DNA of 38,428 bases from Syntrophorhabdaceae bacterium (GTDB lineage Bacteria > Desulfobacterota > Syntrophorhabdia > Syntrophorhabdales > Syntrophorhabdaceae). The position numbers and the translations under genes are program-made. The stretch spans positions 1 through 38,428 of the forward strand of contig JAOAFK010000098.1 in NCBI GenBank assembly GCA_026416315.1. The letters are read 5' to 3'. Positions 1-28,806 of this stretch are shown here, in pieces; the first letter of the stretch is position 1; each line of letters starts with the position of its first letter. The notes below the pieces were generated by a model. The model had not been told where the DNA came from, did no database searches, and was given only the letters and a program-made list of their open reading frames with translations.

Positions 1-1
1 A

Positions 2-2570: not shown

Positions 2571-2594
2571 AATATATAAAAAGAGGTGTAATTA

Positions 2595-2948: not shown

Positions 2949-2952
2949 TGCC

Positions 2953-4344
2953 ATGAAATATAAAATTTTTGTTATCATATTGTTTGTTTTTATACTGCTC
3001 TATATTTATCTGGATAATTTAAACCCTCAAAATGTAAAGTTGTACGTAGGATATGGTAAATTTTATGAAACAAGTGTATCAAGTTTTATTGTAATTGCTT
3101 TTATATTTGGTATCCTTGTTTCTGCAATAGCAGGTTTGATGGTAGATCTAAAAAATCTAATTGGAAACTGGAGAAAAGGAAGACATGAAAAAAAGTTACA
3201 GGAATTCAAAGAGTTATTTGATAAGGCAAGATCATATGCATTAAGGGGTGATAAAGAAAAGGCAGTGGATAGTTTAAACAAAATTATAAGAAAATATCCT
3301 GAAATGGAAAGCCCTTATATCTATCTTGCAAATCTTTATATATCAACAAAAGAATTTGAAAATGCCTTAAATATTCTTAATCAGGCCGAAATGAATATTG
3401 GTAAAAAAGAAAAAATACTTTTAAAGAAGGCAGGGGTAAACAAATCGTTGAATAACTTAAAGGATGCTGAAGATAATTTACTGGAAATTATTAAAATAAA
3501 TGAAGCAAATATTTCAGCCCTAACTCTTCTCAGAGATATCTACATAGAAAAGAGAGAGTGGGAGAATGCATATGATGTTCAAAAAAGGATTAAAAAATTT
3601 GTAAAGGATGAACAGGAGCAAAGAAGATTTATAGGACTTAAATATGAATTGATTTTTGATTCTTATAACAAAAGAAATGAAGTAAGTGAAGAAAAAGTGA
3701 TCAAAGAATTAAAAGAGATAATTGCTGAAGACAAGAGGTTTGTTCCTGCATATCTGTTTCTCGCTGATATATATAAAAAAATTGGTAAATTAAATGAAGC
3801 TGGAAGAGTATACGGAAGGGGATATACAAAAACAGGACATATCATCTTTCTTTTAAAGATGGAAGACCTCTACATTGAAAGAGGTGATCCTGGTGTAATT
3901 TTAAAGATATATAGAAGAATCATGGATATATCACCAAAAAATCGTTTGATCATATTTCTGTATGCAAGGTTATGCTTGAGACTTGAGATGATTGATGAGA
4001 CAATAGACATGCTGAATAGTTTGATTGCAGATGGGGTTGATTTCCAGGGTTTACATAGAGCCATGGCCGAGGCATATATACACAGAGGAGAAATGAAGAA
4101 GGCTGTTGATGAGTTCAGACGTGCCTTTCCTATAGAAAAAGTGTACATACCCTTTGCATGTGATATATGCAATTCAAAAAAAGAAGAATGGGAGGATTTT
4201 TGTGCAAATTGTTTTAGCTGGAACACCATAAATGTAAGAACAGATGAATTCTTAAAGAGCAATATCAAAGATACGACAGATATAAAGGCAATTTATGAGA
4301 TGAGTGAATGGGATAGAGAAGAACAAGAAGAAGAAAACAGGTGA
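2953..4344 (+). CDS. lapB: LapB/YciM-like TPR protein with an N-terminal membrane anchor and a C-terminal rubredoxin-type zinc finger
   Basis: The 463-aa protein has hydrophobic helices in the first ~65 aa and TPR-like repeats (e.g. YIYLANLYISTKEFENAL, AYLFLADIYKKIGKLNEA). The terminal CDICNSKKEEWEDFCANCFSW has CxxC-N11-CxxC. Confidence 0.55.
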   Translation: MKYKIFVIILFVFILLYIYLDNLNPQNVKLYVGYGKFYETSVSSFIVIAFIFGILVSAIAGLMVDLKNLIGNWRKGRHEKKLQEFKELFDKARSYALRGDKEKAVDSLNKIIRKYPEMESPYIYLANLYISTKEFENALNILNQAEMNIGKKEKILLKKAGVNKSLNNLKDAEDNLLEIIKINEANISALTLLRDIYIEKREWENAYDVQKRIKKFVKDEQEQRRFIGLKYELIFDSYNKRNEVSEEKVIKELKEIIAEDKRFVPAYLFLADIYKKIGKLNEAGRVYGRGYTKTGHIIFLLKMEDLYIERGDPGVILKIYRRIMDISPKNRLIIFLYARLCLRLEMIDETIDMLNSLIADGVDFQGLHRAMAEAYIHRGEMKKAVDEFRRAFPIEKVYIPFACDICNSKKEEWEDFCANCFSWNTINVRTDEFLKSNIKDTTDIKAIYEMSEWDREEQEEENR

Positions 4345-10680: not shown

Positions 10681-11205
10681 ATGAAATCTACAACAGTGAT
10701 ATGTGTAAGACACAGGGGTAATGTTGCTATTGGAGGCGACGGTCAGGTAACATTAAATACCACAGTTGTTAAACATACGGCAAAAAAGATAAGAAAAATA
10801 TATAAGGATAAATGTCTTGCTGGATTTGCCGGTGCTACAGCAGATGCATTTACCTTATTTGAAAGATTTGAAAAAAAACTCGAAGAGTATAATGGTAATA
10901 TTATAAGGGCCTCTGTTGAACTTGCAAAGGACTGGAGAACAGATAGACTTTTAAGGAGGCTTGAGGCACTGTTGATAGTTGCTGATAAAGAACATACCCT
11001 GATACTTTCAGGAAACGGTGATGTAATAGAGCCCGATGATGGCATTGCAGCTATAGGTTCAGGTGGCCCTTATGCACAGGCAGCAGCAAAGGCCCTTATA
11101 AAATATACAGATCTCACAGCTACTGAAATTGTGAAAGAATCCATGCGCATTGCCTCGGAGATATGTATTTATACTAATGATAGAATTGAGATAGAGGAAC
11201 TATAA
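10681..11205 (+). CDS. hslV: ATP-dependent protease subunit HslV
   Basis: The 174-aa protein has an N-terminal [10 protein letters not shown] with the Thr nucleophile and a GGDGQVT motif, followed by hslU. Confidence 0.95.
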
Positions 11206-12536
11206 TGGATATGTTAAAGCCACGGGAGATAACAGAAGAATTAAATAGATATATAATTGGGCAGAATAAGGCAAAAAGGGCTGTTTCCATTGCGTTGAGA
11301 AATAGGTGGCGTAGGCAGATGATTCCTAAGGAGTTAAGAGATGAGATTGCTCCAAAAAACATCATTATGATAGGTCCCACAGGGGTGGGTAAAACAGAGA
11401 TTGCAAGAAGGCTTGCAAAGCTTGCAAATGCACCTTTTTTAAAAATAGAGGCAACAAAGTTTACAGAAGTAGGGTATGTGGGTAGAGATGTGGAATCCAT
11501 GATAAGGGATTTAACAGAACTTGCTGTGAACATGGTGAAAAAGGAAGAGCAGGAGGCCGTTAAGGAAAAGGCAAAGGTCCTTGCTGAGGAGAGACTCCTT
11601 GATATCCTTTTACCTGTCCAGAAGAAAAAAACCTTAGAAAACGGCATTGAACAAGAAGATTCTTCAAGGGAAAAATTAAGAATTCTTTTTAAAGCTGGAA
11701 AATTAGATGAAAAAATGGTGGAAATAGAGATGCCCGATAGGGTATTGCCTATAATTGAGATATTTTCTGCATCAGGCATGGAAGAGATGGATATGCAGAT
11801 AAGGGATATATTCGGCAATATTTTGCCGAAAAAGACAAAAAAAAGAAGACTTAAAGTAAAAGAGGCCTATGAATATCTTATTCAGGAAGAATCAAAAAAA
11901 CTCATCGATATGGATAAGGTTATAAAGGATGCAATTGAAAGGGTTGAGCAGTCAGGGATCATTTTTCTTGACGAAATAGATAAAATTGCAAGTAGAGACA
12001 GAACCCATGGGCCTGATGTATCCAGAGAAGGGGTGCAAAGAGATATTCTGCCCATTGTAGAAGGTACAACGGTCACAACAAAATACGGTATGGTGAAAAC
12101 AGACCATATACTGTTTATAGCGGCAGGGGCATTCCATATGTCAAAGCCATCTGACTTAATTCCTGAGTTGCAGGGGAGATTTCCTATAAGGGGAGAGCTT
12201 GACCCATTAACAAAGGAAGATTTTTATAGAATACTTACAGAGCCAGATAATGCCCTTATAAAGCAGTATAAGGCCCTTCTGGCCACTGAAAATATTGAAC
12301 TTGATTTTGAAAAAGAGGCCATAGAGGAGATTGCAGAAATTGCACAGAAAATTAACGAAATGACAGAAAATATAGGTGCAAGAAGGTTATATACAGTGAT
12401 GGAGAAATTGCTCGATGAGATATCCTATTCAGCTCCGGACATGAATGAAAAGAAGATTATCATAACAAGAGATTATGTAAGAGAAAAATTAGGAGAGTTT
12501 CTCGAAAGAGAAGATTTAAGTAGATATATTTTGTAA
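11205..12536 (+). CDS. hslU: ATP-dependent protease ATPase subunit HslU
   Basis: The 443-aa protein has PREI..ELN.YIIGQ..AKRAV, Walker [26 protein letters not shown] and an I-domain insertion. There is a 1-nt overlap with hslV. Confidence 0.95.
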
Positions 12537-12554
12537 AAAAATTTTGGAGCGTAT

Positions 12555-13400
12555 ATGGGCGAGAAAATTAAAACACTCCTTGAGGCACTGCCTTATATAA
12601 AGAAATTTTTCGGCTCTACATTTGTGATAAAATATGGTGGTGCTGCAATGGAGGAAGAATCATTGAAAAAAGAGTTTGCAAGAGATGTGGTTCTCCTAAA
12701 ATATGTAGGGATAAACCCTGTGATAGTGCATGGTGGTGGACCCATGATAGGTCGATTATTGAAAGACCTCCAGATACCCACTAAATTTGTGGATGGGTTA
12801 AGGGTAACAGATGAAAAAACTCTTGAAGTGGTTGAGATGGTATTATCAGGCCTTATAAACAAAGAGATTGTAAAAAATATAAATGACATGGGAGGAAGGG
12901 CCATAGGTCTATCCGGAAAGGATGGAAGGCTTCTTGTTGCAAAAAGGGTTGAAGATAAAGACATAGGCCTTGTGGGTGATATCGTAAATGTAAATGTGGA
13001 TATCATAAAGGATATCAATAAACACGGATATATCCCTGTGATTGCACCCCTTGCTGATGGTCTGGATGGAAATTCATACAATGTGAACGCAGATACAGCT
13101 GCAGGAAGGATCGCAGAAGCCCTCCTTGCAGATAAACTTATTCTACTTACAGATGTGGACGGTGTACTGGGAAATGATGGTAGTCTCATCTCAACCCTTA
13201 CGAAGGAAGAGGTGGATATCCTTATGAATAAAAAGACCATATCTGGTGGGATGATACCAAAGGTATCATGCTGCATTGATGCCTTAAATGCAGGAGTCAA
13301 GGAAACCCATATAATTAATGGAAAGATTCCTCATGCAATACTCCTTGAAGTTTTTACAGATTCAGGTATAGGCACAAAAATCTCAGGGGGAATGTCATAA
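12555..13400 (+). CDS. argB: acetylglutamate kinase
   Basis: The 281-aa protein has VIKYGGAAM, VIVHGGGP and YNVNADTAAG motifs. Confidence 0.95.
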   Translation: MGEKIKTLLEALPYIKKFFGSTFVIKYGGAAMEEESLKKEFARDVVLLKYVGINPVIVHGGGPMIGRLLKDLQIPTKFVDGLRVTDEKTLEVVEMVLSGLINKEIVKNINDMGGRAIGLSGKDGRLLVAKRVEDKDIGLVGDIVNVNVDIIKDINKHGYIPVIAPLADGLDGNSYNVNADTAAGRIAEALLADKLILLTDVDGVLGNDGSLISTLTKEEVDILMNKKTISGGMIPKVSCCIDALNAGVKETHIINGKIPHAILLEVFTDSGIGTKISGGMS

Positions 13401-14599
13401 TGCAGGAAGAATTTATAAAAAAAGGGTTGCAGTATCTTGCAAATACATACAATAGATTTCCCATTGTTGTTACAAAGGGCGAGGGGTGCTGGGTATGGGA
13501 TTTAAACGGCAGGAGATACCTTGATTTTTTATCTGGTATTGCAGTTTGCAATCTCGGGCACGCACATAAAAATGTTGTGGAAGGTGTAGTCCAGCAGGCA
13601 CATAAGCTTTTTCATATCTCAAATCTTTTCTACATTGAACCTCAGATAAAAGCAGCAGAACTTTTATGCAAGCATTCTTTCGGGGATAAGGTGTTTTTCT
13701 GTAACAGTGGAGCTGAAGCAAATGAGGCAGCCATAAAACTTGCAAGACGTTATTCGTGGATTAAATACGGCGAAGATAGATATGAGATAATAGTGATGGA
13801 GAATTCTTTTCATGGAAGAACCATAGCGACCCTTACCGCAACGGGTCAAAAAAAATTCCATGAAGGATTTCAGCCACTCCTTGAAGGCTTCAGATACTGT
13901 GAATTCAACGATATAGATGCCCTAAAAGGGTGTATAAACAGTAAGACCTGTGCAATCATGTTGGAACTCGTACAATCAGAGGGTGGTATATATGTAGCAG
14001 ATAAAGAGTACATAAAGGAATTAAGAAAAATTGCAGATGAAAATGATATCCTTTTAATTTTTGATGAGATACAGACAGGAATGGGTAGAACAGGAAGATT
14101 TTTTGGATATGAACATTTCCATATCGAACCTGATATAATGACCCTTGCAAAGGCTTTAGGCAATGGTTTTCCAGTGGGATCAATGATTGCCAAAGAACAT
14201 GTAATGGATGCCTTTGTCCCTGGGACCCATGCCTCTACCTTTGGTGGAAACCCCCTTGCTATGAGTGCAGTTTTAGCAACCATAAATACATTAATAGATG
14301 ATGGTGTGATAAAAAACTGCGAAAAAATGGGAATGTATCTAAGAGAAGGGCTTAAAAGATTAAAGGAAAAGTTTTCCATTATAACGGATATAAGGGGATT
14401 AGGACTTATAATTGGTATGGAGCTTTCCATAAATGGGGATGAAATTTTAAAGGAATTTATGAAAGAGGGCATTATAATAAATTGCACAAAGGGCAATATC
14501 TTAAGGCTCCTGCCCCCTCTAATCATAACAGAGGAGGAAATAGACCTCTTTCTTGAAATAGCAGAAAGGGTTTTTGAAAGATTTGAAAGGAGAGTATAG
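13400..14599 (+). CDS. argD: acetylornithine aminotransferase (class III PLP aminotransferase)
   Basis: The 399-aa protein has FCNSGAEANEAAIKLAR, LIFDEIQTGMGRTG and MTLAKALGNGFP (PLP lysine) motifs. It sits between argB and argF. Confidence 0.9.
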   Translation: MQEEFIKKGLQYLANTYNRFPIVVTKGEGCWVWDLNGRRYLDFLSGIAVCNLGHAHKNVVEGVVQQAHKLFHISNLFYIEPQIKAAELLCKHSFGDKVFFCNSGAEANEAAIKLARRYSWIKYGEDRYEIIVMENSFHGRTIATLTATGQKKFHEGFQPLLEGFRYCEFNDIDALKGCINSKTCAIMLELVQSEGGIYVADKEYIKELRKIADENDILLIFDEIQTGMGRTGRFFGYEHFHIEPDIMTLAKALGNGFPVGSMIAKEHVMDAFVPGTHASTFGGNPLAMSAVLATINTLIDDGVIKNCEKMGMYLREGLKRLKEKFSIITDIRGLGLIIGMELSINGDEILKEFMKEGIIINCTKGNILRLLPPLIITEEEIDLFLEIAERVFERFERRV

Positions 14600-14604
14600 G
14601 TAAT

Positions 14605-15534
14605 TTGGGGAACAAGGTGAAAAGAGACTTTACGAAATTACTGGATATCAATAAAAAAGAATGCCTTCGATTGATTGAAAGGGCTCAAAAATTAAAAGAG
14701 TTAAAAAAACAAGGTATAGAATATAGACCCCTTAAAGGTAAATATCTTGCCATGATATTCGAAAAGGCCTCTACGAGGACAAGGATCTCCTTTGAAATAG
14801 GTATAAAGGATTTAGGTGGTTCAGCCGTTGTTCTAAATAAAGGGGATACACAATTAGGAAGGGGAGAACCTATTGAAGATACTGCAAGGGTAGTAAGCAG
14901 GTATGTGGATGCTATCATGATAAGAACCTTTGGCCAACAAATCGTGGAAAGGCTTGCCGCATGGTCAACTGTGCCTGTTATAAATGGCTTAACAGATGAA
15001 TTTCATCCATGCCAGATTTTATCTGACCTTTTTACTATAAAGGAAATAAAAAAAGACTTTAAAGATTTGAAGATTGCCTATATTGGTGATGGAAACAATG
15101 TGGCAAATTCCTGGATTGAGGCATCTATTCTTTTTGGTTTAAATCTAAGTATTGCCACACCTGAAGGATACGAACCCCTTGCTAATCTTGTCGAAATGGC
15201 AAAAGAAAATAAAAATTTTCAACTTCTGAAAGACCCTTTTGAAGCAGCAAAAGATGCAGATGTGATAAACACGGATGTATGGGTGAGTATGGGACAGGAA
15301 GAAGAACAGAAAGAGAGAAGAGAAGCATTTAAATCATACAGGATTGATGATGAGCTTTTAGCAGTAGCAAAAAAAGATGCAATTGTTCTACATTGCCTTC
15401 CAGCCCATAGAGGTGAAGAGATAACAGAAGGTGTCTTTGAAAGGTTTTCTTCCATCATCTTCACCCAGGCGGAGAACAGATTGCATGTACAGAAGGCACT
15501 TCTCGAATGGTTAATCCTTGGATGGAATGAATAA
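14605..15534 (+). CDS. argF: ornithine carbamoyltransferase
   Basis: The 309-aa protein has [17 protein letters not shown] and [10 protein letters not shown] motifs. The track start at 14605 is TTG; the GTG at 14617 is an alternative start. Confidence 0.9.
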
Positions 15535-15572
15535 AACCATTTGAGACCCTAAAAAAAGAATGGAGGATCAAA

Positions 15573-16772
15573 ATGTCTGATATTAAAAAGGTAGTCCTTG
15601 CATATTCAGGTGGACTTGATACTTCTGTGATATTAAAGTGGTTAAAGGAGAAGTATGGCTGCGATGTAATAGCCTATGCCGCTGATATAGGTCAGGAGGA
15701 AGAACTCAAGGGTCTAAAACAGAAGGCACTCAATACAGGGGCTTCAAAGGTCTATATTGAGGATTTGAAAGAAGAATTCGCAAGGGATTTCATTTTTTTT
15801 GCCATAAAGGCTAATGCAATTTATGAAGGTGGTTATTTAATGGGTACTTCCATTGCAAGACCCCTCATTGCAAAAAGACAGATCGAGATTGCAAGGATGG
15901 AAAAGGCTGATGCCGTATCTCACGGTGCAACAGGAAAGGGTAATGACCAGGTAAGGTTTGAACTCACATACTATGCCCTTGAACCCAATATAAAAGTTAT
16001 AGCACCTTGGAGGGAGTGGGAATTTACTTCAAGGGAAGAACTTATTGATTATGCTAAAAAACACAAAATCCCTGTCCCAGTAACAAAGAAAAAACCATAT
16101 AGTATGGATAGAAACTTGATGCATATAAGCTATGAAGGTGGAATCCTTGAAGACCCATGGAGAGAGCCGGACGAAAAGATGTTTTTGACAACCGTATCCC
16201 CTGAGAAGGCTCCTGATAAACCAAGATATATTGAAATTGAGTTTTTAGATGGCATTCCAATAAAGATTGATGGAAAAAAGATGACACCTTACAAAATAGT
16301 TGCCCATTTGAACAAAATTGGCGGTGAAAATGGTATAGGAAGGGTAGACATAGTAGAAAACAGATTTGTAGGAATGAAGTCAAGAGGCGTCTATGAAACT
16401 CCAGGTTGTACAATCCTCCAAACAGCCCACAGGGCCATGGAATCCATAACCATGGATAGGGAGGTCATGCATCTAAGGGACAGTCTAATTCCAAAGATTT
16501 CAGAATTGATATACTATGGCTTCTGGTATTCTCCAGAGATGGAGGTGATAAAGGCATTTGTTAACGAATCACAAAAGGGAGTGACAGGAACAGTGAGATT
16601 GAAACTCTATAAAGGTAATTGCATTGTTGTGGGAAGAAAGTCGGATAAATCCCTCTACTCAAAAGACTTTGCTACATTTGATAGGGATTCTGTTTATAGA
16701 CAGGCAGATGCTGGCGGTTTTATAAGGCTTAATGCCTTAAGGCTCAGAATAAGGGCCATGTTGAATAAATAA
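15573..16772 (+). CDS. argG: argininosuccinate synthase
   Basis: The 399-aa protein has AYSGGLDTS and [15 protein letters not shown] motifs. A GGAGG RBS lies upstream. Confidence 0.95.
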
Positions 16773-16787
16773 TTTCGGAGTGTCAAC

Positions 16788-19265
16788 ATGAAGCAGTATG
16801 AACCCCAAGTTATAGAAGAAAAAAGACAGGCTATATGGGAAAGGGAAGGTCTTTTTAGAGTAACGGAGACAGACAAGAAGGAAAAATATTATCTTCTTGA
16901 GATGTTTCCATATCCCTCTGGAAAGATACACATGGGTCATGTAAGAAATTATTCCATTGGAGATGTAATAGCAAGGTACAAAAAGATGAGGGGTTATAAT
17001 GTGTTGCATCCCATGGGCTGGGATGCCTTCGGTATGCCTGCAGAAAATGCTGCCATGGAGAGGGGGGTGCATCCTGCAAAATGGACATACGATAATATAG
17101 ATTACATGAAAAAACAATTGAAAAGACTGGGTTTCAGTTATGACTGGACAAGGGAGATTGCTACCTGTGATGTTGAATACTATAAATGGGAACAATGGTT
17201 TTTTCTTAAGATGTTTGAAAGAGGGCTTGTTTATAGAAAAAGTGCGCCAGTAAATTACTGTGTCCATTGTCAGACTGTGCTGGCAAATGAACAGGTTGTG
17301 GATGGTATGTGTTGGAGATGCAATCAGGCGGTGATACAGAAAGAACTCACCCAGTGGTTTTTTGCCATAACAAAATATGCAGATGAGCTGTATGAGTATT
17401 GCGATAGACTGCCTGGATGGCCTGAACGGGTGTTAAATATGCAGAAAAACTGGATAGGCAAGAGCTATGGTGTGGAGGTGGATTTCAGACTCGAAAACAA
17501 CGAGCCTTTAACGATCTTTACCACAAGACCGGATACACTCTATGGTGTTACATTTATGGCATTGGCCCCCGAACATCCCCTTGCAACTACCCTTGCAGAA
17601 GGCACAAGATATGAAGAAGAAGTGAAATCTTTTGTTGAAAAGGCAAAGATGCAGGATAGGAGTTTCAGGGCAGAGCTAAAGGGAAATAAAGAAGGTGTTT
17701 TTACAGGAAAATATGCGATAAACCCGTTAAATGGTGCAAAAATACCCATCTATATTGGCAATTTTGTCCTCATGGAATATGGAACAGGCGCCATCATGTC
17801 TGTTCCTGCCCATGACCAGAGGGATTTTGAATTTGCAAAGGTATATGGTCTTCCCATAATAATTACAATTATGCCGGAAGGCAGGACATTAAATCCGGAT
17901 ACAATGGAAGAGGCATATGAGGGTGATGGATATCTTGTTAATTCCGGTGAGTTTAATGGTTTAAATAATAGAGATGCAATAGAGAAAATAATAGATTATC
18001 TTGAGGCAAAAGGTCTGGGAAGGAGGAAAGTGAACTTTAGGTTGAGGGATTGGGGTATATCGAGGCAGAGATACTGGGGTGCCCCAATACCCATAATATA
18101 CTGTGAAGAATGTGGTATAGTGCCGGTTCCTTATGAAGATCTACCTGTTGTGTTACCCCTTGACCTTGAGGTAAAAGTGGTGGGCAAATCTCCTCTTGTA
18201 GACTGTGAAGAATTTGTAAATGTTAAGTGCCCCAAATGCAATAAACCTGCAAGAAGAGAGACGGATACCATGGACACATTCGTTGAATCTTCATGGTATT
18301 TCTTAAAATACGCATGTCCCGACTATAAAGAAGGTCCTCTTGATAAAGATAAGGTAAATTACTGGATGCCAGTAGATCAATACATTGGTGGGGTTGAGCA
18401 TGCAGTGCTACATCTTCTCTATTCAAGGTTTTTTAACAGGGTTTTAAATGAATTAGGTTTTGTTGATGTAAGAGAACCATTTAAAAATCTATTAACCCAG
18501 GGCATGGTTATAAAAGATGGCGCAAAGATGAGTAAATCAAAAGGAAATGTCGTTGACCCCGATTATCTGATAGAAAAATACGGTGCAGATACGACAAGAC
18601 TATGCTGTCTCTTTGCATCACCACCTGAAAAGGACTTAGACTGGAGTGACAAAGGTGTGGAAGGTTGTTATAGGTTTCTCCACAGGGTATGGAGGCTAAC
18701 CATAGAAAGGATAGATGATATAAAAGGCCTCTCATCCACATATACACCTATCGATAATGAAGGTGATATACGTCTTTTGACTATAAAGGTTCATCAAACC
18801 ATAAAAAAGGTAACAGAGGACATTGAGAGGTTCCACTTGAATACAGCCATAGCAAGCATTATGGAGCTTTTAAATGCTGTATATAAATTTCTCGAAAAAC
18901 CGAGAAATAATCCGAATGAATTAAGCTTCTTAAAAGGCTCCATTGAGGTTATATTAAAACTTCTTTTTCCTTTTGTCCCTCATATTTCAGAAGAATTATG
19001 GGAGATGTTAGGGAATGATATGTCACTTTTAAGAGACAGTTGGGTAGACTATAAAGAAGAATATACAATAGAAGATAAGGTAACTATTGCGGTACAGGTA
19101 AACGGGAAACTCCGTGATACCTTTGAGATTGAAAGGGATGCATCCGAAGAGATGGTAAAAGATGCAGCATTAAGCCTTGATAAGATAAAAAAACACACAG
19201 TGGATAAATCCATAAAAAAGGTTATTGTTATCCCAAACAAACTTGTAAACATAGTATGTGGGTAA
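16788..19265 (+). CDS. leuS: leucine--tRNA ligase
   Basis: The 825-aa protein has the HIGH-type motif [23 protein letters not shown] and a CP1 editing domain. Confidence 0.97.
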
Positions 19266-20158: not shown

Positions 20159-22576
20159 TTAACCAGTAAATGTATGTAAATAAGATTGGAGATTTACCTT
20201 TTTTTTCACCAAATTTAGTTTTTTTCTGATACTATAACGATGTATTTCAACTGTTCTTGTAGACAAACCGAGCATATTAGATATCTCTTTTGTGGTTTTA
20301 CCCTTTTTTATTAAATCAGCTATTCTTATTTCAGTCGGTGTGAAATTTAAGTACCTTGAGGTCAAGCTTTTAATAAAAGGAGACACAATCTCATTTAAAT
20401 TATTTTCGATGATGTTTATGAGTGCTTCATTCGTGTAATGTTTATAGACCTTGAGTTTTTCTATGTAAGGAAAGACAAGTTCTTTTACATTGCTTACGAT
20501 CTTTTCTTCAAGTTCAAGAATATCCTGTTCACGATGTTTTAATAATATGTTTAAGGCTGCATTTGCCTCTTCAAGACTTTTCGATTTCATGGCTAATTCT
20601 TCCATCATGGTCTTTCTCTCTGTTATATCCACCATTGTTCCTTCATAATATTTAAGGTTTTTTGAACGATCATGAACAACCCTCAAATTTGTGCTAACCC
20701 ATATAATCTTTCCATCTTTTCTTTTACATTGAACCTCGAAGTTATTAACAAAACCATTAGATTCAAGCAATTTTTTCATTTCAATCCTTCTTATAGGATT
20801 TACATAGAGGTCTTTAGCAACATCCTTTACAGAAGATATTATTTCTTCTGGTGTATCAAAACCAAAGAGATGAGCAAATGATTTATTAGCGTTTAAAATC
20901 CTCCCATCTGGTGTGGTTTGAAATATACCTTCCATGGCATTCTCGAATATCATTCTATAGTTTTCTTCTGCCCTTTTTATTGCTTCTTCTGCCTTTTTTC
21001 GTTCTGTTATATCTCTCCATACAGTGAATAACACGGGTTCATTTGCAAGGTTTATAAATGAAAATGAGCCTTCAACTAATATCTGCTCACCATCAGTTCT
21101 TTTTAAGACCCATTCAAAATGTGTAGTTTCACCCCTTAAAGCCTTATGTATGATCTTCCTTGTCTTTTCTGATGATTTCTCGCCATCAGGTTGGATTTCT
21201 GGAGAGAGGTCTATGGGTGTTAGTCCAACAATTTGGTCCTTTCCTTTAAAATTCAGTAATTTTATAGCCGCTTCATTACAGTCTATGATTCGCCTCTTCT
21301 TATTTATCAGCAAAATTGGGTCAGCGGATTTTTCAAATAATAGTCTGAATTTTTCTTCACTAATCTTAAGAGCCTTTTCAGCCTTCTTTCTTGCAGTAAT
21401 ATCAACAAGGATAGTTATGATGTAATTCTTTAAAATTATTGACCTAAATTCTATGTCTTTTTTTTCACCGTTTTTACACTGGATTGTAAATTCCTCTTCC
21501 ACCCACTCCCTTTTTTTGGAAAGTACTTTATCCATCCAAAAGGCAACAACTTTATTCCTGTAATTCTTGTCTGGATATGCCTTTTTAAACCATTCCCGTC
21601 CTGTCGGTACATCAAAATGGGTGTAACCTGTTATTTTTGTGAATTCTAAATTAACAAATAAGAAAACACCATTAATATCTGTAATGATTACACCCATGGG
21701 GAGATTATTTAATATAGCGTTTAAATCCTCCCTTTCTCTTAATAAGGCAAACTCTACTTCTTTTCGTTTTGTAACATCCTCTAAAAATCCCTCATAGTAT
21801 AAAACTTTTCCAGAAACATCTTTAACAGCCCTTGCACTGATGGACACCCACAGAGTACTTTTATCTTTTCTGAATAGTTCAGTTTCGAAGCCTTCAATAG
21901 AACCATTCTCCGTGATAATTTTTTTTATGTATTCTCTGTCTTCTAATCTCACATAATAATTGTCTATACATGCAATGGGTGATATGATTTCTTCTGGAGA
22001 ATTATAGCCAAGCATCTTTGCAAATGCTTTGTTTACCCTTATGAATGAACCTTCTGGCGTAACTTGAAAAATACCGCTCACTGCATTTTCAAATATACTT
22101 TTATAATGTGCCTCCTTTTCTTTTAATTGATTTTCTATTTCTTTCTTTTTAGTTATATCATGCCAGATCACATAATTTAAAATTTTTCCTCTAATTGGTA
22201 AGGGGTTTATAAATATCTCGGCGTATATCTTTTCTTTGTCAGAAGTTTGAAATACCCACTCAAAATTTATGTTTCCCCTTTCATAAACATTTTCATAGAA
22301 ATCTTTTTCTCTAATTAATGAAGACACGCCATCTAATTGAATATCTGGTGAGATATCACAGGGGGTCTTACCAATTAAATCTTCCTTATTTTTATATTTA
22401 AGGCAAAGGACCGCTGAGGGGTTACATTCCACTATGGTATTTTTTTCCATTAAAAAGATAGGGTTGGGTGAACAATTAAAAAGATAAAAAAACCTTCTCT
22501 CGCTCTCAACGAGCAGTTCTTTTACCTCATCTATTAATTTCTGGAGATTTAACGCTTTCTCAATCGAGTCGACCAT
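20159..22576 (-). CDS. one-component regulator: five PAS domains, a helical linker and a C-terminal LuxR-type HTH
   Basis: The 805-aa protein has five PAS-like blocks of about 120 aa (about aa 27-145, 155-272, 280-397, 407-527, 537-655), each ending in a D(I/V)T(K/E/A)RK motif. A coiled linker follows (ILLKHREQDILELEEKIVSNVKELVFPYIEKLK). The HTH is TPTEIRIADLIKKGKTTKEISNMLGLSTRTVEIHRYSIRKKL. There is no receiver or kinase domain. Confidence 0.85.
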   Translation of the reverse strand: MVDSIEKALNLQKLIDEVKELLVESERRFFYLFNCSPNPIFLMEKNTIVECNPSAVLCLKYKNKEDLIGKTPCDISPDIQLDGVSSLIREKDFYENVYERGNINFEWVFQTSDKEKIYAEIFINPLPIRGKILNYVIWHDITKKKEIENQLKEKEAHYKSIFENAVSGIFQVTPEGSFIRVNKAFAKMLGYNSPEEIISPIACIDNYYVRLEDREYIKKIITENGSIEGFETELFRKDKSTLWVSISARAVKDVSGKVLYYEGFLEDVTKRKEVEFALLREREDLNAILNNLPMGVIITDINGVFLFVNLEFTKITGYTHFDVPTGREWFKKAYPDKNYRNKVVAFWMDKVLSKKREWVEEEFTIQCKNGEKKDIEFRSIILKNYIITILVDITARKKAEKALKISEEKFRLLFEKSADPILLINKKRRIIDCNEAAIKLLNFKGKDQIVGLTPIDLSPEIQPDGEKSSEKTRKIIHKALRGETTHFEWVLKRTDGEQILVEGSFSFINLANEPVLFTVWRDITERKKAEEAIKRAEENYRMIFENAMEGIFQTTPDGRILNANKSFAHLFGFDTPEEIISSVKDVAKDLYVNPIRRIEMKKLLESNGFVNNFEVQCKRKDGKIIWVSTNLRVVHDRSKNLKYYEGTMVDITERKTMMEELAMKSKSLEEANAALNILLKHREQDILELEEKIVSNVKELVFPYIEKLKVYKHYTNEALINIIENNLNEIVSPFIKSLTSRYLNFTPTEIRIADLIKKGKTTKEISNMLGLSTRTVEIHRYSIRKKLNLVKKKVNLQSYLHTFTG

Positions 22577-22638: not shown

Positions 22639-23904
22639 TTATAAAAATTTTTTATCATGTTCCACAATTTTAAGTATATCCATACATTTTTGTTCAGCCA
22701 ATCTTATTGACTCTTCCGCCAGCTTTGAATTGGTTACATCTTCAAGTATTTCAACTGCCCCTGTTATATTTCCTTTAGCATCTTTTACAGGTATCGCTGA
22801 AAAATACATCCATTTACCATTGGGATAAAAGGTTTTGAAAAAATCTAAAGCTTTATATTGGCCAACAGAATTGATTATTGATATTTTGTTAGGATACCAC
22901 TTATTTACAACATCGATATCCACACCATCAACCACCAAATCTGCCAGACATGGTCTTTCATAATCATAAAAGGCCTTCCAGTGTTTTTTTGTTCCCACCA
23001 TTTCTTTTGCGGTTATTCCTCTTAAATTTTCTAAGGCTTTGTTCCAGTAAACTACCTTATGGTCTTTGTTAATCATGAACTGGGGTATAGGTGATTCACA
23101 TATTATACTCTCTAAATGAGCCCTTTGGTCATGAATCTCATTTTCCATCAATTTATATCTTGTTATATCCTCAATGACCCCGATTATTTCATTTACAACC
23201 CCTTTTTGAAATATTGGAACAAAATCCGTCTTTATCCATTTTTTTTGACCAGATGTATCTATGTAGCTTAATTCAAATTCATCTACATGGCTTCCTTTTA
23301 AACACGATTTTACGCAATAAGAAATTTTATTTCTTTCTTCAGGGGTTATCAAATCAAAAATGGATTTATTCAATAACCATTCTCTTTCAAACCCAGTAGT
23401 TTCAACAAAGGCTTTATTCACATAAACGAATTTACCATCACTATTACAGATAAAAACACCTAAAGATTTTTTCTGAAATCTTTTCAAAAGGTTAGGGTGA
23501 GATTTACTAAAAATTTCCTCTTCAATCTTTTCTTCAGTAATATCATATATGGCTGATATTACATGGGTAACCTTACCATTTTCGTTATTATAAGGAATAT
23601 AATAGATTTTATAGTATTTCTGACCTAACTTTGGAACGTCGAACCAGTCATCATAAACAACAGGAACACCGCTAAAACATTTGTCCAAACACTCTTTTAT
23701 GGAGTTGTTGAAATTTTCTTCTCCCCACACATCTGACACAGTACTTTTCAAAATCTCATCCCTGTTTTTTCCTAAAATACTACAATAAGAAGAATCAACA
23801 AATTCATAAGTATAATCTTTGTTTATAAGTGTCATAAATTTGTCTATAGCTGGCATTATATTACTAAAGTACCAACCTTTGTATTTTTTTGATGTAAGCT
23901 TCAT
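22639..23904 (-). CDS. PAS-domain-only sensor protein (about three PAS blocks, no output domain)
   Basis: The 421-aa protein has PAS-like blocks ending ...VISAIYDITEEK, ...IIGVIEDITRYK and ...TGAVEILEDVTNSK. There is no TM segment, HTH, kinase or GGDEF/EAL motif. Confidence 0.75.
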   Translation of the reverse strand: MKLTSKKYKGWYFSNIMPAIDKFMTLINKDYTYEFVDSSYCSILGKNRDEILKSTVSDVWGEENFNNSIKECLDKCFSGVPVVYDDWFDVPKLGQKYYKIYYIPYNNENGKVTHVISAIYDITEEKIEEEIFSKSHPNLLKRFQKKSLGVFICNSDGKFVYVNKAFVETTGFEREWLLNKSIFDLITPEERNKISYCVKSCLKGSHVDEFELSYIDTSGQKKWIKTDFVPIFQKGVVNEIIGVIEDITRYKLMENEIHDQRAHLESIICESPIPQFMINKDHKVVYWNKALENLRGITAKEMVGTKKHWKAFYDYERPCLADLVVDGVDIDVVNKWYPNKISIINSVGQYKALDFFKTFYPNGKWMYFSAIPVKDAKGNITGAVEILEDVTNSKLAEESIRLAEQKCMDILKIVEHDKKFL

Positions 23905-23916
23905 GACCCCTCCCTC

Positions 23917-24456
23917 TTATTTAAGATTTATTTTTTCTGCCAAATATTTTCTCGATTTGTTGTATATCGACACTATCTGGTGAATGAGATTGTCGTGTTC
24001 TCCCTGTCTAACTTCCCTTACCACTCTACCTGGTATACCCATGACAAGAGAATTGGGTGGGATATGGGCACCTGCCGAAACAAAACTGCCTGCCCCTATT
24101 ATGCTGCCCGATGAAATCACAGCACCATCCATGATAATCGCACCTATTCCTATGAGACATCGAGATTCAATGGTCGCACCATGAATGATTGCCCCGTGAC
24201 TAATCAGAGTTTCTTCGCCTATTTTAACAGGAAGACCTTCTGGAGATTCAACAAAGGCAAAATCTAAAATTGCTGCGTATCTCTCTACATGAATAGGTGC
24301 CCCATCTGCCCTAAGGACTGCCATGGGCCAAACACTTGAACCTTCTTCTAATATAACATTTCCAATAATTCTTGCTGAGATATCTACGTATACACCCCCT
24401 TTAAACTCTGGTCTTATACCTTCAAAACCACTTATAAAGCCATTTGTGTTATCCAT
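23917..24456 (-). CDS. gamma-carbonic-anhydrase-like / left-handed beta-helix (hexapeptide repeat) protein
   Basis: The 179-aa protein has hexapeptide repeats (IGNVILEEGSSVWP, IGEETLISHGAIIHGATIESRCLIGIGAIIMDGAVISSGSIIGAGSFV) and the YrdA/CaiE/PaaY-type tail ...LVMGIPGRVVREV. Its start overlaps the upstream gene's stop by 8 nt. Confidence 0.8.
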   Translation of the reverse strand: MDNTNGFISGFEGIRPEFKGGVYVDISARIIGNVILEEGSSVWPMAVLRADGAPIHVERYAAILDFAFVESPEGLPVKIGEETLISHGAIIHGATIESRCLIGIGAIIMDGAVISSGSIIGAGSFVSAGAHIPPNSLVMGIPGRVVREVRQGEHDNLIHQIVSIYNKSRKYLAEKINLK

Positions 24457-26512
24457 TTGCTACTCTCCTTTTCTCTTCTATAATTTTTTCTTTTTCAGTA
24501 TCTTTAACGATTTTTAAACCCTCAACAATTAGCTCACATATGTCTAAAACTTGTATGTTTTCATTTACGTTTAACTCTTTTAGACCATCTTCAAACATGG
24601 TAACACAGTAAGGACAACTCGTAGCTATTATGTTTGGCTTTTTCAATAGAGCCTCTTTTGTCCTTTCCCTATTAATCCTTGTTGCTGCATCATCTTCAAG
24701 CCACATCCGTCCGCCACCAGCACCACAACAAAAGGTATCTTTTTTTGAATTACCCATCTCTAATGGCAATTTTCCAGTGAACGATTTCAAGACATATCTC
24801 GGTTCTTCAATAATACTGTTATATCTTGCTAAGTAACATGAGTCGTGATAAACTATAGACTTCTCACCAAAGGCAAAATCCCTTTTGAGAACCTGATTTT
24901 TGTATAGCATGTTTAATAGCTCTGTGTGGTGAAAAACATTGAATTCTGCACCGTAAGCTCTATAGTCGTTTTTCAATGTGTTATAACAATGTGGACAAAT
25001 GGTTATTACATTCTTTACATTTAATTTCTTAAACAAATTTACATTCTTAATAGCAATACTGTCGAAAACATATTCATTGCCAAGCCTTCTTAAGGCATCA
25101 CCACAACACATCTCATCGGATCCAAGGATACCATAACTGACAGATGCCGTATTAAGCACAGTAACCAAAGAGTTTATAATCTTCTTCGTTCTCGCATCAA
25201 AAGATCCCATACATCCTACATACAAGAGATATTCATGATTTTCATTCTTTGAAAAGATTGGAATATCAAGATGTTGAGCCCATTTTCCCCTTTCTGAAGG
25301 TGCAATACCCCAGGGATTTGACCTCGCTTCAATATTTTCAAAGAAGGTAATGAGTTCTTCTGGAAATCTTACCTCTTCCATAACGAGGTTTCTTCTTATA
25401 TTTAGTATCTTTGGAAAGTGTTCTATAAAAACAGGACATACCTCAACACACGCACCACAAGTGGTGCAGTCCCAAATACTCTCCTCGTTTATGCTTCCTT
25501 CTCCATTACCAATAAGAGGAACTGGATAATTTAAAACAGGCATAGGTTTTCCAATTGTGTCAAATGGTCTATTGGAGATTATATATAAACCATTTTCCAT
25601 TAGATTTTTTTTCAACGTATGGATGAATTCTTTTGGGTTAAGTGTCTTTCCTGAGATATTAGCAGGACAAGAGGCCTTGCACCTTCCACATTCAGTGCAT
25701 GAAAGGGCATCAAGGAGGTCTTTCCAAGAAAAATCAGTGATTTTAGATATTCCAAAAGACATGTTTTTACTGAATTGCATCTTTGATGGAGATGTGGGAA
25801 AAGAAAAGTTCCTAAAGAAACAATTAGGAAGAGATGTAATTATATGAAGATGTTTACTGTATGGGATAAAGATGAGAAAGAACAAAAACAGTGATGCATG
25901 GACCCACCAAAAGATTCTATTGAGTATATAAAGTTCTGAGTCTTTCATTCCACTTATAATCATAGTTCTTAGAAACTCTGAAACAGGAAGAATTAAATCT
26001 TTTTCCTTAGGGTCTATAGCTGTTATATTCATTCCAAAATAGGCAGCCATAAGAAATCCAACAGTTGACAGTATAATATAGGCCTCTTTTGTGGATTCCA
26101 AGTAGGATGGTTTAATAACAACCCTCCTTAAAACTGCAAAAATCACGGCTATCATCACAACAGCAGACATTATATCAGCAAGCATATTAAGGAGCTTGTA
26201 AGGGAATTCTCCTATAAAAGAAAGTGAAAATTTAGGAAAAAAACCAGATAAAACAAACTCTAAATTTATAGGGAGAAGTACCATAAAACCCCAAAAAAGC
26301 ATGAAGTGGTTAAAACCAAATGTCTTTTTTAAAACCTTTTTCTGGAGAAAACCATAAAAGACCATATTTTTAAATCGTTCCCATAGTCTATCGAACCTGT
26401 ATTCCCAATTTCCAAGGGAAATAAGATTTATAAGTGTATAAATTCTTCTGATAAACACTACCATAGCAACTAAAAAGATAATTGCAAAGATTAAAGATTC
26501 TACTGGTTTCAT
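24449..26512 (-). CDS. membrane-bound FeS oxidoreductase (N-terminal polytopic domain, 2x[4Fe-4S] motifs, two CCG domains); candidate ETF:(mena)quinone oxidoreductase
   Basis: The 687-aa protein has about five hydrophobic helices in the first ~230 aa, including ...WWVHASLFLFFLIFIPYSKHLHII. Motifs are CTECGRCKASCP and CTTCGACVEVCP, plus two Cys-rich CCG-type blocks (YVGCMGSF...MCCGDA...ICPHCYNT and YHDSCYLARY...FCCGAGGG...SCPYCVTM). It lies 13 nt downstream of etfA. Confidence 0.8.
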   Translation of the reverse strand: MKPVESLIFAIIFLVAMVVFIRRIYTLINLISLGNWEYRFDRLWERFKNMVFYGFLQKKVLKKTFGFNHFMLFWGFMVLLPINLEFVLSGFFPKFSLSFIGEFPYKLLNMLADIMSAVVMIAVIFAVLRRVVIKPSYLESTKEAYIILSTVGFLMAAYFGMNITAIDPKEKDLILPVSEFLRTMIISGMKDSELYILNRIFWWVHASLFLFFLIFIPYSKHLHIITSLPNCFFRNFSFPTSPSKMQFSKNMSFGISKITDFSWKDLLDALSCTECGRCKASCPANISGKTLNPKEFIHTLKKNLMENGLYIISNRPFDTIGKPMPVLNYPVPLIGNGEGSINEESIWDCTTCGACVEVCPVFIEHFPKILNIRRNLVMEEVRFPEELITFFENIEARSNPWGIAPSERGKWAQHLDIPIFSKNENHEYLLYVGCMGSFDARTKKIINSLVTVLNTASVSYGILGSDEMCCGDALRRLGNEYVFDSIAIKNVNLFKKLNVKNVITICPHCYNTLKNDYRAYGAEFNVFHHTELLNMLYKNQVLKRDFAFGEKSIVYHDSCYLARYNSIIEEPRYVLKSFTGKLPLEMGNSKKDTFCCGAGGGRMWLEDDAATRINRERTKEALLKKPNIIATSCPYCVTMFEDGLKELNVNENIQVLDICELIVEGLKIVKDTEKEKIIEEKRRVANG

Positions 26513-26525
26513 ATTAACTCCTCTT

Positions 26526-27983
26526 TCAATTTTGGCTCATATTTGCCTTTTCTTTAAGGGAAGTAATTAGTGTCGGTAATATTTCAAACACGTCGCCTAC
26601 TATCCCAACATGAGCGATTTCAAAAATAGGTGCGTTTTTATCTTTATTGATGGCTATTATATGTTCCGCATTTTGCATCCCTACTATATGCTGGATTGCA
26701 CCAGAGATCCCACAGGCCAAATAAAGCTTGGGTCTTATGGTTTTTCCTGTTTGTCCTATCTGTCTGTCATGGGTTATCCAACCTGCATCCACTGCACATC
26801 TGGAACCGCCAACAACACCTCCAAGGAGAGAGGCAAGTTCTTCAAGGAGTGAAAAATTCTTCTTTTCAAGCATACCCTTTCCACCACTTACAACAATATT
26901 GGCAGTTCTGATATCGTTCTCATCACCCTTGGAAACCGGTATTATCTCGAGGATCTTTGTTGCTATATCCTCTTCTTTCAATTCGATGGTTTCTCTAATG
27001 AGTTCACCATATCTTTCCTTAAAAGGAGGCATAGGTAGAACCATAGGTCTCACCGATGCCATTTGTGGTCTTGCATGTTCTGTTAAGATGGTGGCCATAA
27101 CATTACCACCAAATGCAGGTCTTGTCTGTTCAAGGAGTCTTTTTTCCTTGTCTATGCTCAATTTTGTACAATCTGCAGTAAGACCTGTTTTAAGAGCAGT
27201 TGCAACGGCACTTGCCAAATCCCTTCCCAATCCTGTCGCACCCATGAGTAGTATCTCTGGATGATACTTGTTCACGAGATATACAATACAATCAAGGTAA
27301 GGACGTGTGCGGTAGTATTTTAATGTGGGATGGTCGATGAGATATACCTTATCAGCCCCATATCCAAAGGCCTCTAATACAAGATGTTCCACATTGTGCC
27401 CAAGTAGTATAGCCGAAAGATCAGTACTTAATTCTGAAGCAAGTTGGCTTCCTATGCCTAATAACTCCCATGATACTTGATTTGCCTTACCATCAAAATG
27501 TTCTATAAAAACCCACACACTTTCCCATTTTATTTTTTCTGTAGTTGATATCTTTTCTGTTGATGTTGAATCATCAATATCCCTATTTGTGAGTTCTTTG
27601 AAATCTTCCAGAGCCCCAATTTTGCATACATCGATACATTTTTTACATCTGTTGCATTTACCCAGATTGATTATTGGTATCCCTTTTGTATCGAGGGTAT
27701 CGTATTCTATGGCATTTACTTGGCACACCTTAATGCATTCACCACATCCATTGCATTTTTCATCTTTTAGGATATAAACCAGTTCAAATGCACCCACAGG
27801 GCATGCCCTTAAACACTTTTTACATCCTATACACTTTGTGTAATTTACAATAGGCGTACCTTTTGTATCATGGGTATCATATTCCAAGGCATTAACTGTA
27901 CAAGAAGGTTCGCATCTTCCGCAGGCTATGCATTTCTCGGTAATTAAACGGACCTTAGGTCTTGTTTTTTTCTGCTTAGACAT
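26526..27983 (-). CDS. etfA: electron transfer flavoprotein alpha subunit fused to two tandem N-terminal 2x[4Fe-4S] ferredoxin-like domains
   Basis: The 485-aa protein has 16 Cys in four CxxCxxCxxxC motifs across aa 18-126. The C-terminal part is typical EtfA/FixB (VVSGGKGM, GGSRCAVDAGW, GQTGKTIRPKLYLACGISGAIQHIVGM). There is an 8-nt overlap with etfB. Confidence 0.9.
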   Translation of the reverse strand: MSKQKKTRPKVRLITEKCIACGRCEPSCTVNALEYDTHDTKGTPIVNYTKCIGCKKCLRACPVGAFELVYILKDEKCNGCGECIKVCQVNAIEYDTLDTKGIPIINLGKCNRCKKCIDVCKIGALEDFKELTNRDIDDSTSTEKISTTEKIKWESVWVFIEHFDGKANQVSWELLGIGSQLASELSTDLSAILLGHNVEHLVLEAFGYGADKVYLIDHPTLKYYRTRPYLDCIVYLVNKYHPEILLMGATGLGRDLASAVATALKTGLTADCTKLSIDKEKRLLEQTRPAFGGNVMATILTEHARPQMASVRPMVLPMPPFKERYGELIRETIELKEEDIATKILEIIPVSKGDENDIRTANIVVSGGKGMLEKKNFSLLEELASLLGGVVGGSRCAVDAGWITHDRQIGQTGKTIRPKLYLACGISGAIQHIVGMQNAEHIIAINKDKNAPIFEIAHVGIVGDVFEILPTLITSLKEKANMSQN

Positions 27984-28806
27984 TTTGTGTACTCCTTATA
28001 ATCTTCCAATTTTCTAAGTTTTTTAAAATCATCTCCACAGCAAAGCAAGTTCCATTTCCATCTCCGTTTCCTTCAAAGATTTCACCTTTCTGTTTTTCAG
28101 GAGCGAATATCCTTTTAACTGTTGTAGGTGAGCCTGTTAGACCTATAGTATTTGGATCCAACTTTAAAAAATAGTTATTCCAGATAGGTATTGATAGACC
28201 TTCTGCATATATTCTCCGGGGCACAGAAGGATAGCGAGGCCTATTTGCATCTTTTTCTATGGTTAAAAGAGAAGGCAGGCTCGTTTCTATTATCTCAAAC
28301 CAATCTTCTAATTTCCTTCTAACTACGATCCTTTTTTTAGTAAGATCAAGAGATACTATCTTGTCAACTAAGGTTGCCTGATTAAAACCTAAACGGGTTG
28401 CAATACCTGGTCCTACTTGGGCAGTATCACCATCTATGGTTTGTTTACCGCATATAATGATATCTACTGGTTCCTTTTTAGAGATCTCCAATATGGCATT
28501 AGCTAAAACATTACTGGTGGCAAGTGTGTCGGCACCACCAAACACCCTGTCACTCAAAAGTATCCCATCATCAGCACCCATTGCAATTGCCTTTCTAATG
28601 ACTGCATCAGCCATAGGAGGTCCCATTGATAGAACAGTTACCTTACCCCCGTATATGTCTTTAATCCTCAATGCCTCTTCAACAGCAGGGGCATCAAATG
28701 GATTCATGATAAATGGAACCCCCTCTCTAACGAGGGTATTTGTAACAGGATCTATTTTTACCTGGGTTGTATCAGGTACCATCTTAACACAAACAATTAC
28801 ATGCAT
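27976..28806 (-). CDS. etfB: electron transfer flavoprotein beta subunit (FixA/bifurcating-type sequence features)
   Basis: The 276-aa protein has the N-terminal IVCVKMVPDT, FGGADTLATS, GKQTIDGDTAQVGP and GLTGSPTTV motifs. A GGGAGG RBS lies 7 nt upstream. Confidence 0.9.
   Translation of the reverse strand: MHVIVCVKMVPDTTQVKIDPVTNTLVREGVPFIMNPFDAPAVEEALRIKDIYGGKVTVLSMGPPMADAVIRKAIAMGADDGILLSDRVFGGADTLATSNVLANAILEISKKEPVDIIICGKQTIDGDTAQVGPGIATRLGFNQATLVDKIVSLDLTKKRIVVRRKLEDWFEIIETSLPSLLTIEKDANRPRYPSVPRRIYAEGLSIPIWNNYFLKLDPNTIGLTGSPTTVKRIFAPEKQKGEIFEGNGDGNGTCFAVEMILKNLENWKIIRSTQNV

Follow-up and report, generated by a model that had tools for sequence, protein, structure and literature searches.

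A bifurcating-type electron transfer flavoprotein encoded with an EMO/EtfD-family membrane oxidoreductase in a Syntrophorhabdaceae genome

Organization of the gene block

Our analysis of a 38,428 nt stretch of DNA (the window) revealed an operon for an electron transfer flavoprotein (ETF) with ferredoxin domains on its large subunit and for a predicted membrane oxidoreductase of the EMO/EtfD family, in which EMO stands for ETF:(methyl)menaquinone oxidoreductase. The window is contig C175 of a metagenome-assembled genome (MAG; 1.78 Mb, 90% complete), and protein comparison labelled the nearest relatives of its proteins as Syntrophorhabdaceae. The initial annotation of this DNA had placed an Etf module at 23917-28806, and we found the corresponding open reading frames (ORFs) there on the minus strand, with Pfam and NCBIfam domains in agreement (Table 1). 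According to the ORF coordinates, etfB and etfA overlap by 8 nt and 13 nt separate etfA from the EMO gene. The start of the following gene, which encodes a left-handed beta-helix (LbH) protein, overlaps the EMO stop by 8 nt, and a PAS gene lies 12 nt downstream of the LbH gene. Together with a gene for a PAS-LuxR regulator these form a six-gene block in the order etfB, etfA, EMO, LbH, PAS, PAS-LuxR. The ORF list and Pfam gave no FixC/EtfC flavoprotein and no FixX/EtfX gene in the etf-EMO operon, and scans for promoters and terminators yielded sites no more frequently than in shuffled sequence and were not used.

Table 1. Genes of the etf-EMO block and ferredoxin domains of EtfA.
Feature	Position	Strand	Size	Domains and remarks
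etfB	27976-28806	-	276 aa	Pfam ETF
etfA	26526-27983	-	485 aa	Pfam ETF, ETF_alpha and four Fer4 stretches; also NCBIfam
Ferredoxin domain 1 of EtfA	27783-27947	-	residues 13-67	8 Cys; aligns with the CarE N-terminal ferredoxin domain
Ferredoxin domain 2 of EtfA	27606-27770	-	residues 72-126	8 Cys; tandem duplicate
EMO/EtfD-family membrane oxidoreductase	24449-26512	-	687 aa	Pfam CCG and 4Fe-4S dicluster
Gamma-carbonic-anhydrase-like LbH protein	23917-24456	-	179 aa	Pfam/NCBIfam
PAS-only protein	22639-23904	-	421 aa	Pfam
Multi-PAS LuxR-type regulator	20159-22576	-	805 aa	Pfam; last gene in the conserved six-gene block

The membrane protein

The third gene had been described as encoding not a FixC/ETF-QO flavoprotein but a membrane protein with 2x[4Fe-4S] and two CCG domains. 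This description is borne out by a full-length match of the 687 aa protein to the cryo-EM structure of EtfD from Mycobacterium smegmatis (MsEtfD; 9ojn_A, E = 3.8e-113) and by Pfam, which detected CCG with 107 bits in two stretches as well as Fer4 dicluster families. Hydropathy indicated five hydrophobic segments in residues 1-226, consistent with a cytochrome b-like, NarI-like domain of five transmembrane helices. The identities of haem, cluster and pocket ligands were taken from MsEtfD (PMC13083937) and from the EMO of Syntrophus aciditrophicus (SaEMO; bioRxiv 10.64898/2026.08.18.745454). The suggested search for a haem b domain with histidine ligands was positive: the proximal haem b ligands correspond to H69/H223 (H78/H241 in MsEtfD, H87/H251 in SaEMO) and the distal-haem histidine to H205 (H223 and H233, respectively), with the same 18-residue spacing as in both characterised proteins. 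F76/F212 correspond to F85/F230 of the MsEtfD menaquinone pocket, and R129, R130 and R277 to the propionate arginines. The two cubane clusters would be held by C272/275/278/282 and C349/352/355/359, CCG domain 1 offers C434, C469, C470, C506, H508 and C509, and CCG domain 2 offers C559, C595, C596, C633 and C636. Alignments of the clade described below show no variation at the haem histidines, at F76/F212, at the propionate arginines or at any cluster cysteine. Its sequence marks the third gene product as an EMO/EtfD homologue that has ligands for haem b and Fe-S clusters.

Neither CCG domain has lost any of the Hdr-like cysteines, ten in all including both CC pairs, whereas MsEtfD has a threonine at the place of one CCG cysteine and SaEMO lacks one ligand (PMC13083937; bioRxiv 10.64898/2026.08.18.745454). 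A complete set would also suit an HdrD-like disulfide reductase, whose CCG domains reduce a thiol/disulfide substrate with electrons from the Etf or the quinone pool. We consider such an activity very unlikely, since no candidate gene for a disulfide carrier adjoins and since the strict pairing with Etf genes and the predicted docking of EtfB (see below) fit electron transfer as in the solved EMOs.

The electron transfer flavoprotein

FixA/bifurcating-type features had been noted in EtfB from its motifs, and the motifs are where they were reported: FGGADTLATS occupies residues 89-98 and GKQTIDGDTAQVGP residues 120-133 (28449-28408). The latter is an IDGDTAQVGP-type motif at the place of the IDDD-type motif of AMP-binding ETF-beta. 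In the alignment, SDRxFGGADTLATS and IDGDTAQVGP are present in the window EtfB and its clade, and the EtfBs encoded beside canonical EMOs show an IDDD-type motif, GKQA(I/V)DDD(A)AQV, instead. The EtfB region of the putative bifurcating FAD, SDRVFGGADTLATS, includes D93 and matches CarD and the EtfBs of Thermotoga maritima and Clostridioides difficile. Comparisons with solved structures in the PDB point the same way. EtfB scored 226 bits with CarD, 222 with T. maritima EtfB, 216 with the C. difficile subunit, 206 with that of Acidaminococcus fermentans and 191 with LctB, all of them bifurcating small subunits, versus 92-84 bits with human, Paracoccus and Methylophilus ETF-beta and 36 bits with a non-bifurcating protein of Geobacter metallireducens. 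The scores of EtfA were 367-268 bits with bifurcating ETFs (CarE 367, T. maritima subunit 329) versus 143-108 bits with non-bifurcating ones (human ETF-alpha 143). For a control EtfB encoded beside a canonical Syntrophaceae EMO (L110) the ranking was reversed, with the human protein first at 174 bits, and bifurcating ETFs were not ranked first for either of the two other EtfBs of the window's genome.

In group II bifurcating ETFs an aspartate of EtfB (D93' in A. fermentans) is 100% conserved and R146 of EtfA, which lies at the bifurcating site with Ile157 as neighbour, is 99% conserved (PMC10279923). R288 and I299 of the window EtfA align with R146 and I157 of the A. fermentans protein (4kpu_A), and the residues of the electron transfer (ET) site, R395, T412, Y421 and H432, map to its R253, S270, Y279 and H290. 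Every residue named for bifurcating ETFs in that study is thus present (EtfB D93, EtfA R288 and I299, and the ET-site set), which answers the question raised in the initial annotation about residues for a second, bifurcating FAD. The bifurcation-site residues are also kept across the ETFs of the deep EMO clade. From likeness to solved structures and from these motifs, EtfAB is assigned to the bifurcating type (NADH-type, group 2, two-FAD signature). The non-bifurcating, AMP-binding ETF group was rejected as an assignment on PDB likeness and signature residues.

In EtfA the ETF core (approximately residues 155-485) is preceded by two 2x[4Fe-4S] ferredoxin domains in tandem. The two domains are identical at 32 of 55 positions and contain four CxxCxxCxxxC motifs with 16 cysteines. 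Among the clade members examined, the tandem duplicate occurs only in the window EtfA and in its three nearest homologues, which are from Syntrophorhabdaceae; the others carry a single 2x[4Fe-4S] domain on EtfA. The ferredoxin domains were correctly recognized in the initial annotation, and only the role of FixX that it gave them does not hold: they align with the N-terminal ferredoxin domain of CarE and, by that likeness, are of the CarE/LctC type rather than the FixX type. Going by the structures of CarCDE and of T. maritima EtfABCX, a domain of the CarE/LctC type lies beside the bifurcating FAD and serves the low-potential branch, and FixX/EtfX is part of the high-potential route that leads to quinone. 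This route would be taken over here by EMO.

With two domains on EtfA, four extra clusters could be read as one long wire. The complex might then be a non-bifurcating ferredoxin:menaquinone or NADH:menaquinone oxidoreductase, its clusters and flavins leading electrons linearly from one soluble donor to the quinone pool, and such an enzyme would suit a genome in which neither Rnf nor the complex I subunit NuoH turned up as an outlet for ferredoxin or NADH. We regard this as unlikely, because the retention of all bifurcation-site residues across the deep clade argues for selection on two-FAD chemistry.

Predicted docking of EtfB on the membrane protein

A complex model of EtfB with residues 255-687 of EMO predicted an interface between the two proteins, with a score of 0.63 versus 0.00 for the best control. 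Among solved complexes, 58 of 80 attained the mark of 0.63, as did 2 of 110 mismatched pairs; these counts are only rough because our own alignments were used in the model. Contacts agreed between runs to at least 81%, and the predicted local distance difference test (pLDDT) value of the partner was at least 73. In the model the recognition loop of EtfB (residues 189-198, RPRYPSVPRR) lies against EMO residues 378-396. R191, Y192 and P193 of the loop are invariant, as are F383, P384, E386, L387, F391 and N393 of EMO. The modelled interface agrees with the reported binding of the S. aciditrophicus ETF to SaEMO, which occurs via EtfB alone, and it supports a physical pairing of EtfB with EMO but does not prove it.

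Distribution and conservation of the module

We gathered approximately 100 EMO-encoding loci from relatives and public genomes, scored their flanks, and calculated a maximum-likelihood tree of 94 EMO homologues. The window EMO falls into a clade of 46 sequences (Shimodaira-Hasegawa-like approximate likelihood ratio test, SH-aLRT, 100), separate from the canonical EMO members, to which it is 34-40% identical. An etfB gene and a ferredoxin-fused etfA gene (at least 400 aa, N-terminal ferredoxin) lie directly upstream of the EMO gene in all 42 assessable clade members; the four remaining members were cut by contig ends and left out of this count. None of the 47 EMOs outside the clade is accompanied by a ferredoxin-fused EtfA: eight are paired with short EtfAs, eleven are encoded near an acyl-CoA dehydrogenase gene, and the remainder are solitary. 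Clade members were found in Syntrophorhabdaceae and other Desulfobacterota, in Geobacter, Geotalea, Citrifermentans and Geomobilimonas, in Dehalococcoidales and Deferribacterales, and in two archaeal bins. The trio of etfB, ferredoxin-fused etfA and EMO is a conserved and widespread module and not a one-off set.

The absence of a partner dehydrogenase beside the module, also pointed out initially, extends to the relatives. No acyl-CoA dehydrogenase was detected in a Pfam scan of the window's proteins, and none adjoins the trio in 41 of 42 related loci, so that a constant association with such enzymes, as in ordinary beta-oxidation, is not seen. An ordinary beta-oxidation ETF, for which adjoining dehydrogenases served as the test, is disfavoured on this count; the single positive locus (L042) contains a second short etfAB pair.

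Two side observations concern individual loci. In L042 (positions 1-3500), from a Deltaproteobacteria MAG, the region directly upstream of the trio holds part of an acyl-CoA dehydrogenase gene and the additional short etfBA pair. The EMOs of the two archaeal bins, a Methanoperedenaceae MAG (L050) and an uncultured archaeon (L039), are nested among Dehalococcoidales sequences; L050 encodes the full bacterial-type trio, its EtfA being ferredoxin-fused, and the L039 sequence breaks off at the start of EMO. These archaeal copies could be due to lateral transfer or to mis-binning.

Other ETF genes and redox complexes in the genome

The genome encodes further sets of related genes on other contigs. 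A second full-length EMO paralogue of 665 aa with a NarI-like Pfam match is located on contig C35 (6565-8562, minus strand; L023), flanked by a gene for a glyceraldehyde-3-phosphate dehydrogenase-like protein on one side and by class-V aminotransferase and serA-like genes on the other. It groups with the canonical Syntrophaceae EMO and adjoins no etf gene. Contig C173 (1790-5552, minus strand; L025) carries a complete acyl-CoA dehydrogenase-etfB-etfA-fixC-fixX set, in which FixCX is paired with a different EtfAB whose EtfB does not rank bifurcating ETFs first. An operon on contig C143 (approximately 10700-17900, minus strand; L024) comprises genes for an HdrD-like, soluble CCG protein, for short EtfB and EtfA subunits, for a 908 aa NfnB/GltD-like flavoprotein and for an HdrA-like protein, with a sigma-54 response regulator divergently encoded. 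The genome's four acyl-CoA dehydrogenase genes are distributed over contigs C98, C17, C101 and C173. Rnf (PF02508) was not found in six Syntrophorhabdaceae genomes (G000, the window's genome, and G001, G002, G008, G015 and G017), and NuoH was not found in G000.

Proposed function

With moderate confidence we favour the interpretation that the operon encodes a membrane-docked, bifurcating-type ETF complex with a Fix-like coupling of NADH, ferredoxin and menaquinone, in which EMO replaces FixCX. NADH would reduce the bifurcating FAD in EtfB. One electron would then run downhill via the FAD of EtfA, which would swing onto EMO while the recognition loop of EtfB anchors the complex, and onwards by way of both non-cubane clusters, both cubane clusters and haem b to (methyl)menaquinone. 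The second electron would be driven uphill along the ferredoxin domains of EtfA to reach soluble ferredoxin. Overall the proposed reaction equals that of FixABCX/EtfABCX, with menaquinone (MQ) and oxidised and reduced ferredoxin (Fd-ox, Fd-red):

2 NADH + MQ + 2 Fd-ox -> 2 NAD+ + MQH2 + 2 Fd-red

Possibly the reaction also runs in reverse, and the transmembrane haems may link it to the proton-motive force. A dedicated substrate dehydrogenase would not be needed. A coupler of NADH, ferredoxin and quinone would be valuable to the cell because Rnf and NuoH were not found, and in this apparently Rnf-less family the complex would form a main link between the three pools. The observation that started this analysis is confirmed and its interpretation partly supported: a bifurcating or confurcating NADH/ferredoxin/quinone machine, in a Fix-like role, is the best reading, and what is not supported is the FixX role of the ferredoxin domains and the link to the nicotinate operon.

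Several points weigh against this interpretation. The signature residues correlate with bifurcation and are no proof of it, and the ETF group assignment is based on likeness to solved structures and on motifs, not on a tree with named reference groups. Direction, stoichiometry and two-FAD content are all inferred for the clade. The docking score may in part be due to resemblance to complexes of ETFs with their partners that are already solved and employ the same loop. Literature searches for a described enzyme of bifurcating Etf plus EMO found no biochemistry for any clade member, only a remark from transposon sequencing (Tn-Seq) on Geobacter. Finally, MqnA/D, MqnC and MenB were not found in the window's genome (90% complete) or in two genomes of the same genus (95-97% complete). 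Among the genomes searched (G000, G001, G002, G015 and G017), MqnA/D occurred only in the family relative G015 and MenB in none at the cut-off; G001, G002 and G015 each encode a UbiA prenyltransferase. Since canonical menaquinone biosynthesis genes were not found, the lipid acceptor in the genus is in doubt.

The complex might instead serve an ordinary beta-oxidation or aromatic degradation route, in which acyl-CoA dehydrogenases encoded elsewhere (e.g. for glutaryl-CoA) reduce the ETF and, as in Syntrophus, EMO hands the electrons on to (methyl)menaquinone, while the NADH/ferredoxin side acts as an alternative confurcating outlet or is vestigial. EMO homologues are indeed ETF:(methyl)menaquinone oxidoreductases in S. 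aciditrophicus and mycobacteria, the host family comprises syntrophic aromatic degraders, the genome contains four acyl-CoA dehydrogenase genes, and bifurcating ETFs also accept dehydrogenase partners via the same recognition loop. However, the characterised EMO partners are AMP-type, non-bifurcating ETFs, and the genome has a separate canonical-type EMO (C35) as well as a complete set of acyl-CoA dehydrogenase, etfBA and fixCX genes (C173). Furthermore, an acyl-CoA dehydrogenase accompanies the clade only at the locus with a second short etfAB pair, and genes of the clade are essential in acetate-grown Geobacter (see below). We therefore judge this route to be rather improbable, though it retains a real chance.

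A more far-reaching and tentative proposal, which we consider possible though doubtful, is that the clade represents a third, structurally distinct membrane-bound bifurcating ETF:quinone oxidoreductase, whose haems would tie bifurcation to the proton-motive force and which would stand in for Rnf and complex I in Rnf-less anaerobes. The window copy and its three closest homologues, all from Syntrophorhabdaceae, would have gained a four-cluster wire and a gamma-carbonic-anhydrase-like accessory subunit. By analogy, such a subunit may recall the gamma-carbonic anhydrase module of plant and protist complex I.

Relation to known systems

The closest described counterpart is GSU2795-2797 of Geobacter sulfurreducens, which is essential and for which a bifurcation/confurcation complex was proposed by Chan et al. 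in 2017 (PMC5585712). It consists of the same trio (etfB, ferredoxin-fused etfA, and a gene for a membrane cytochrome b/Fe-S protein) in the same gene order, and its membership in the clade was inferred from four Geobacteraceae genomes (L044, L051, L055 and L058) and the description in that paper. Annotators have named the third Geobacter protein 'electron transfer flavoprotein-associated cytochrome b and CCG domain pair iron-sulfur oxidoreductase'. The window EMO is 44-46% identical to those of Geobacteraceae. Compared with the Geobacter trio, the window copy has a duplicated ferredoxin domain, with four clusters where Geobacter has two, and further adds a translationally coupled gamma-carbonic-anhydrase-like gene and downstream genes for PAS and PAS-LuxR proteins.

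The characterised EMO/EtfD proteins (SYN_02638 of S. aciditrophicus; M. smegmatis EtfD, PDB 9OJN) share with the window protein a single chain with five transmembrane helices and haem b, two cubane clusters and two CCG domains. Their ETF partners are AMP-type and fed by acyl-CoA dehydrogenases, whereas the predicted partner in the window is a bifurcating-type, ferredoxin-fused ETF. The window EMO is a member of the EMO/EtfD protein family and not of the characterised beta-oxidation system. With FixABCX/EtfABCX (T. maritima, PDB 7KOE; Azotobacter vinelandii) the module has in common a bifurcating-type EtfAB, a membrane-associated, putatively quinone-reducing partner and the proposed reaction. 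It differs in that the operon is without FixC/EtfC and FixX/EtfX, the putative quinone reductase is an unrelated, membrane-spanning haem/Fe-S protein, and the ferredoxin domains are fused to EtfA. The module is Fix-like in its proposed working and not a member of FixABCX. CarCDE and LctBCD of Acetobacterium woodii (PDB 6FAH and 7QH2) are the best-scoring solved relatives and likewise have an N-terminal ferredoxin domain on EtfA. Their high-potential partners are the soluble dehydrogenases CarC and LctD encoded alongside, whereas in the window the predicted partner is the membrane protein EMO and the ferredoxin domain is duplicated.

If the favoured interpretation holds, Rnf-less anaerobes would make or consume low-potential ferredoxin via NADH and the quinone pool, a step that would determine the energy balance of Geobacter and of syntrophic degraders, and the HdrDE-like EMO scaffold would serve bifurcating and ordinary ETFs alike. 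The idea is already published and the gene set widespread; what the window copy adds is not a discovery but a variant with duplicated ferredoxin domains, a gamma-carbonic-anhydrase-like gene and PAS regulators.

Neighbouring genes

A nicotinate operon lies close to the module, with approximately 1.9 kb between etfB and its nearest gene; an S41 peptidase gene and an 87 aa ORF lie in between. As a speculative link, the etf module had been suggested to supply or remove low-potential electrons for the operon's 6-hydroxynicotinate reductase-like enzyme, which was placed in a ferredoxin-dependent class; only the proximity in this window speaks for it. The link is not supported because the adjacency is missing in close relatives: the same-genus genome G001, the same-family genome G015 and locus L029 keep the six-gene block, and in the 6-13 kb upstream of it there are neither nicotinate genes nor the S41 peptidase, and the clade is widespread in genomes with unrelated flanks. 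We rejected a dedicated electron supply or sink for the nicotinate operon on this synteny and regard it as highly improbable.

In the same three loci the LbH gene follows EMO with 77-79% identity over the aligned part, and it was not found in the wider clade. Relatives of the LbH protein in the PDB include gamma-carbonic anhydrase subunits of plant and protist complex I. A glutamate replaces the first of the three metal-binding histidines of the Pyrococcus horikoshii homologue (1v3w), and the other two histidines are kept. Synteny with the etf block in G001, G015 and L029 extends to the genes for the PAS-only protein and the PAS-LuxR regulator, and the regulator is 71-74% identical there, which makes it about as conserved as EMO. 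Both proteins probably regulate the etf-EMO module. At a further locus (L026), a PAS protein and a sigma-54 activator are encoded downstream of the block instead.

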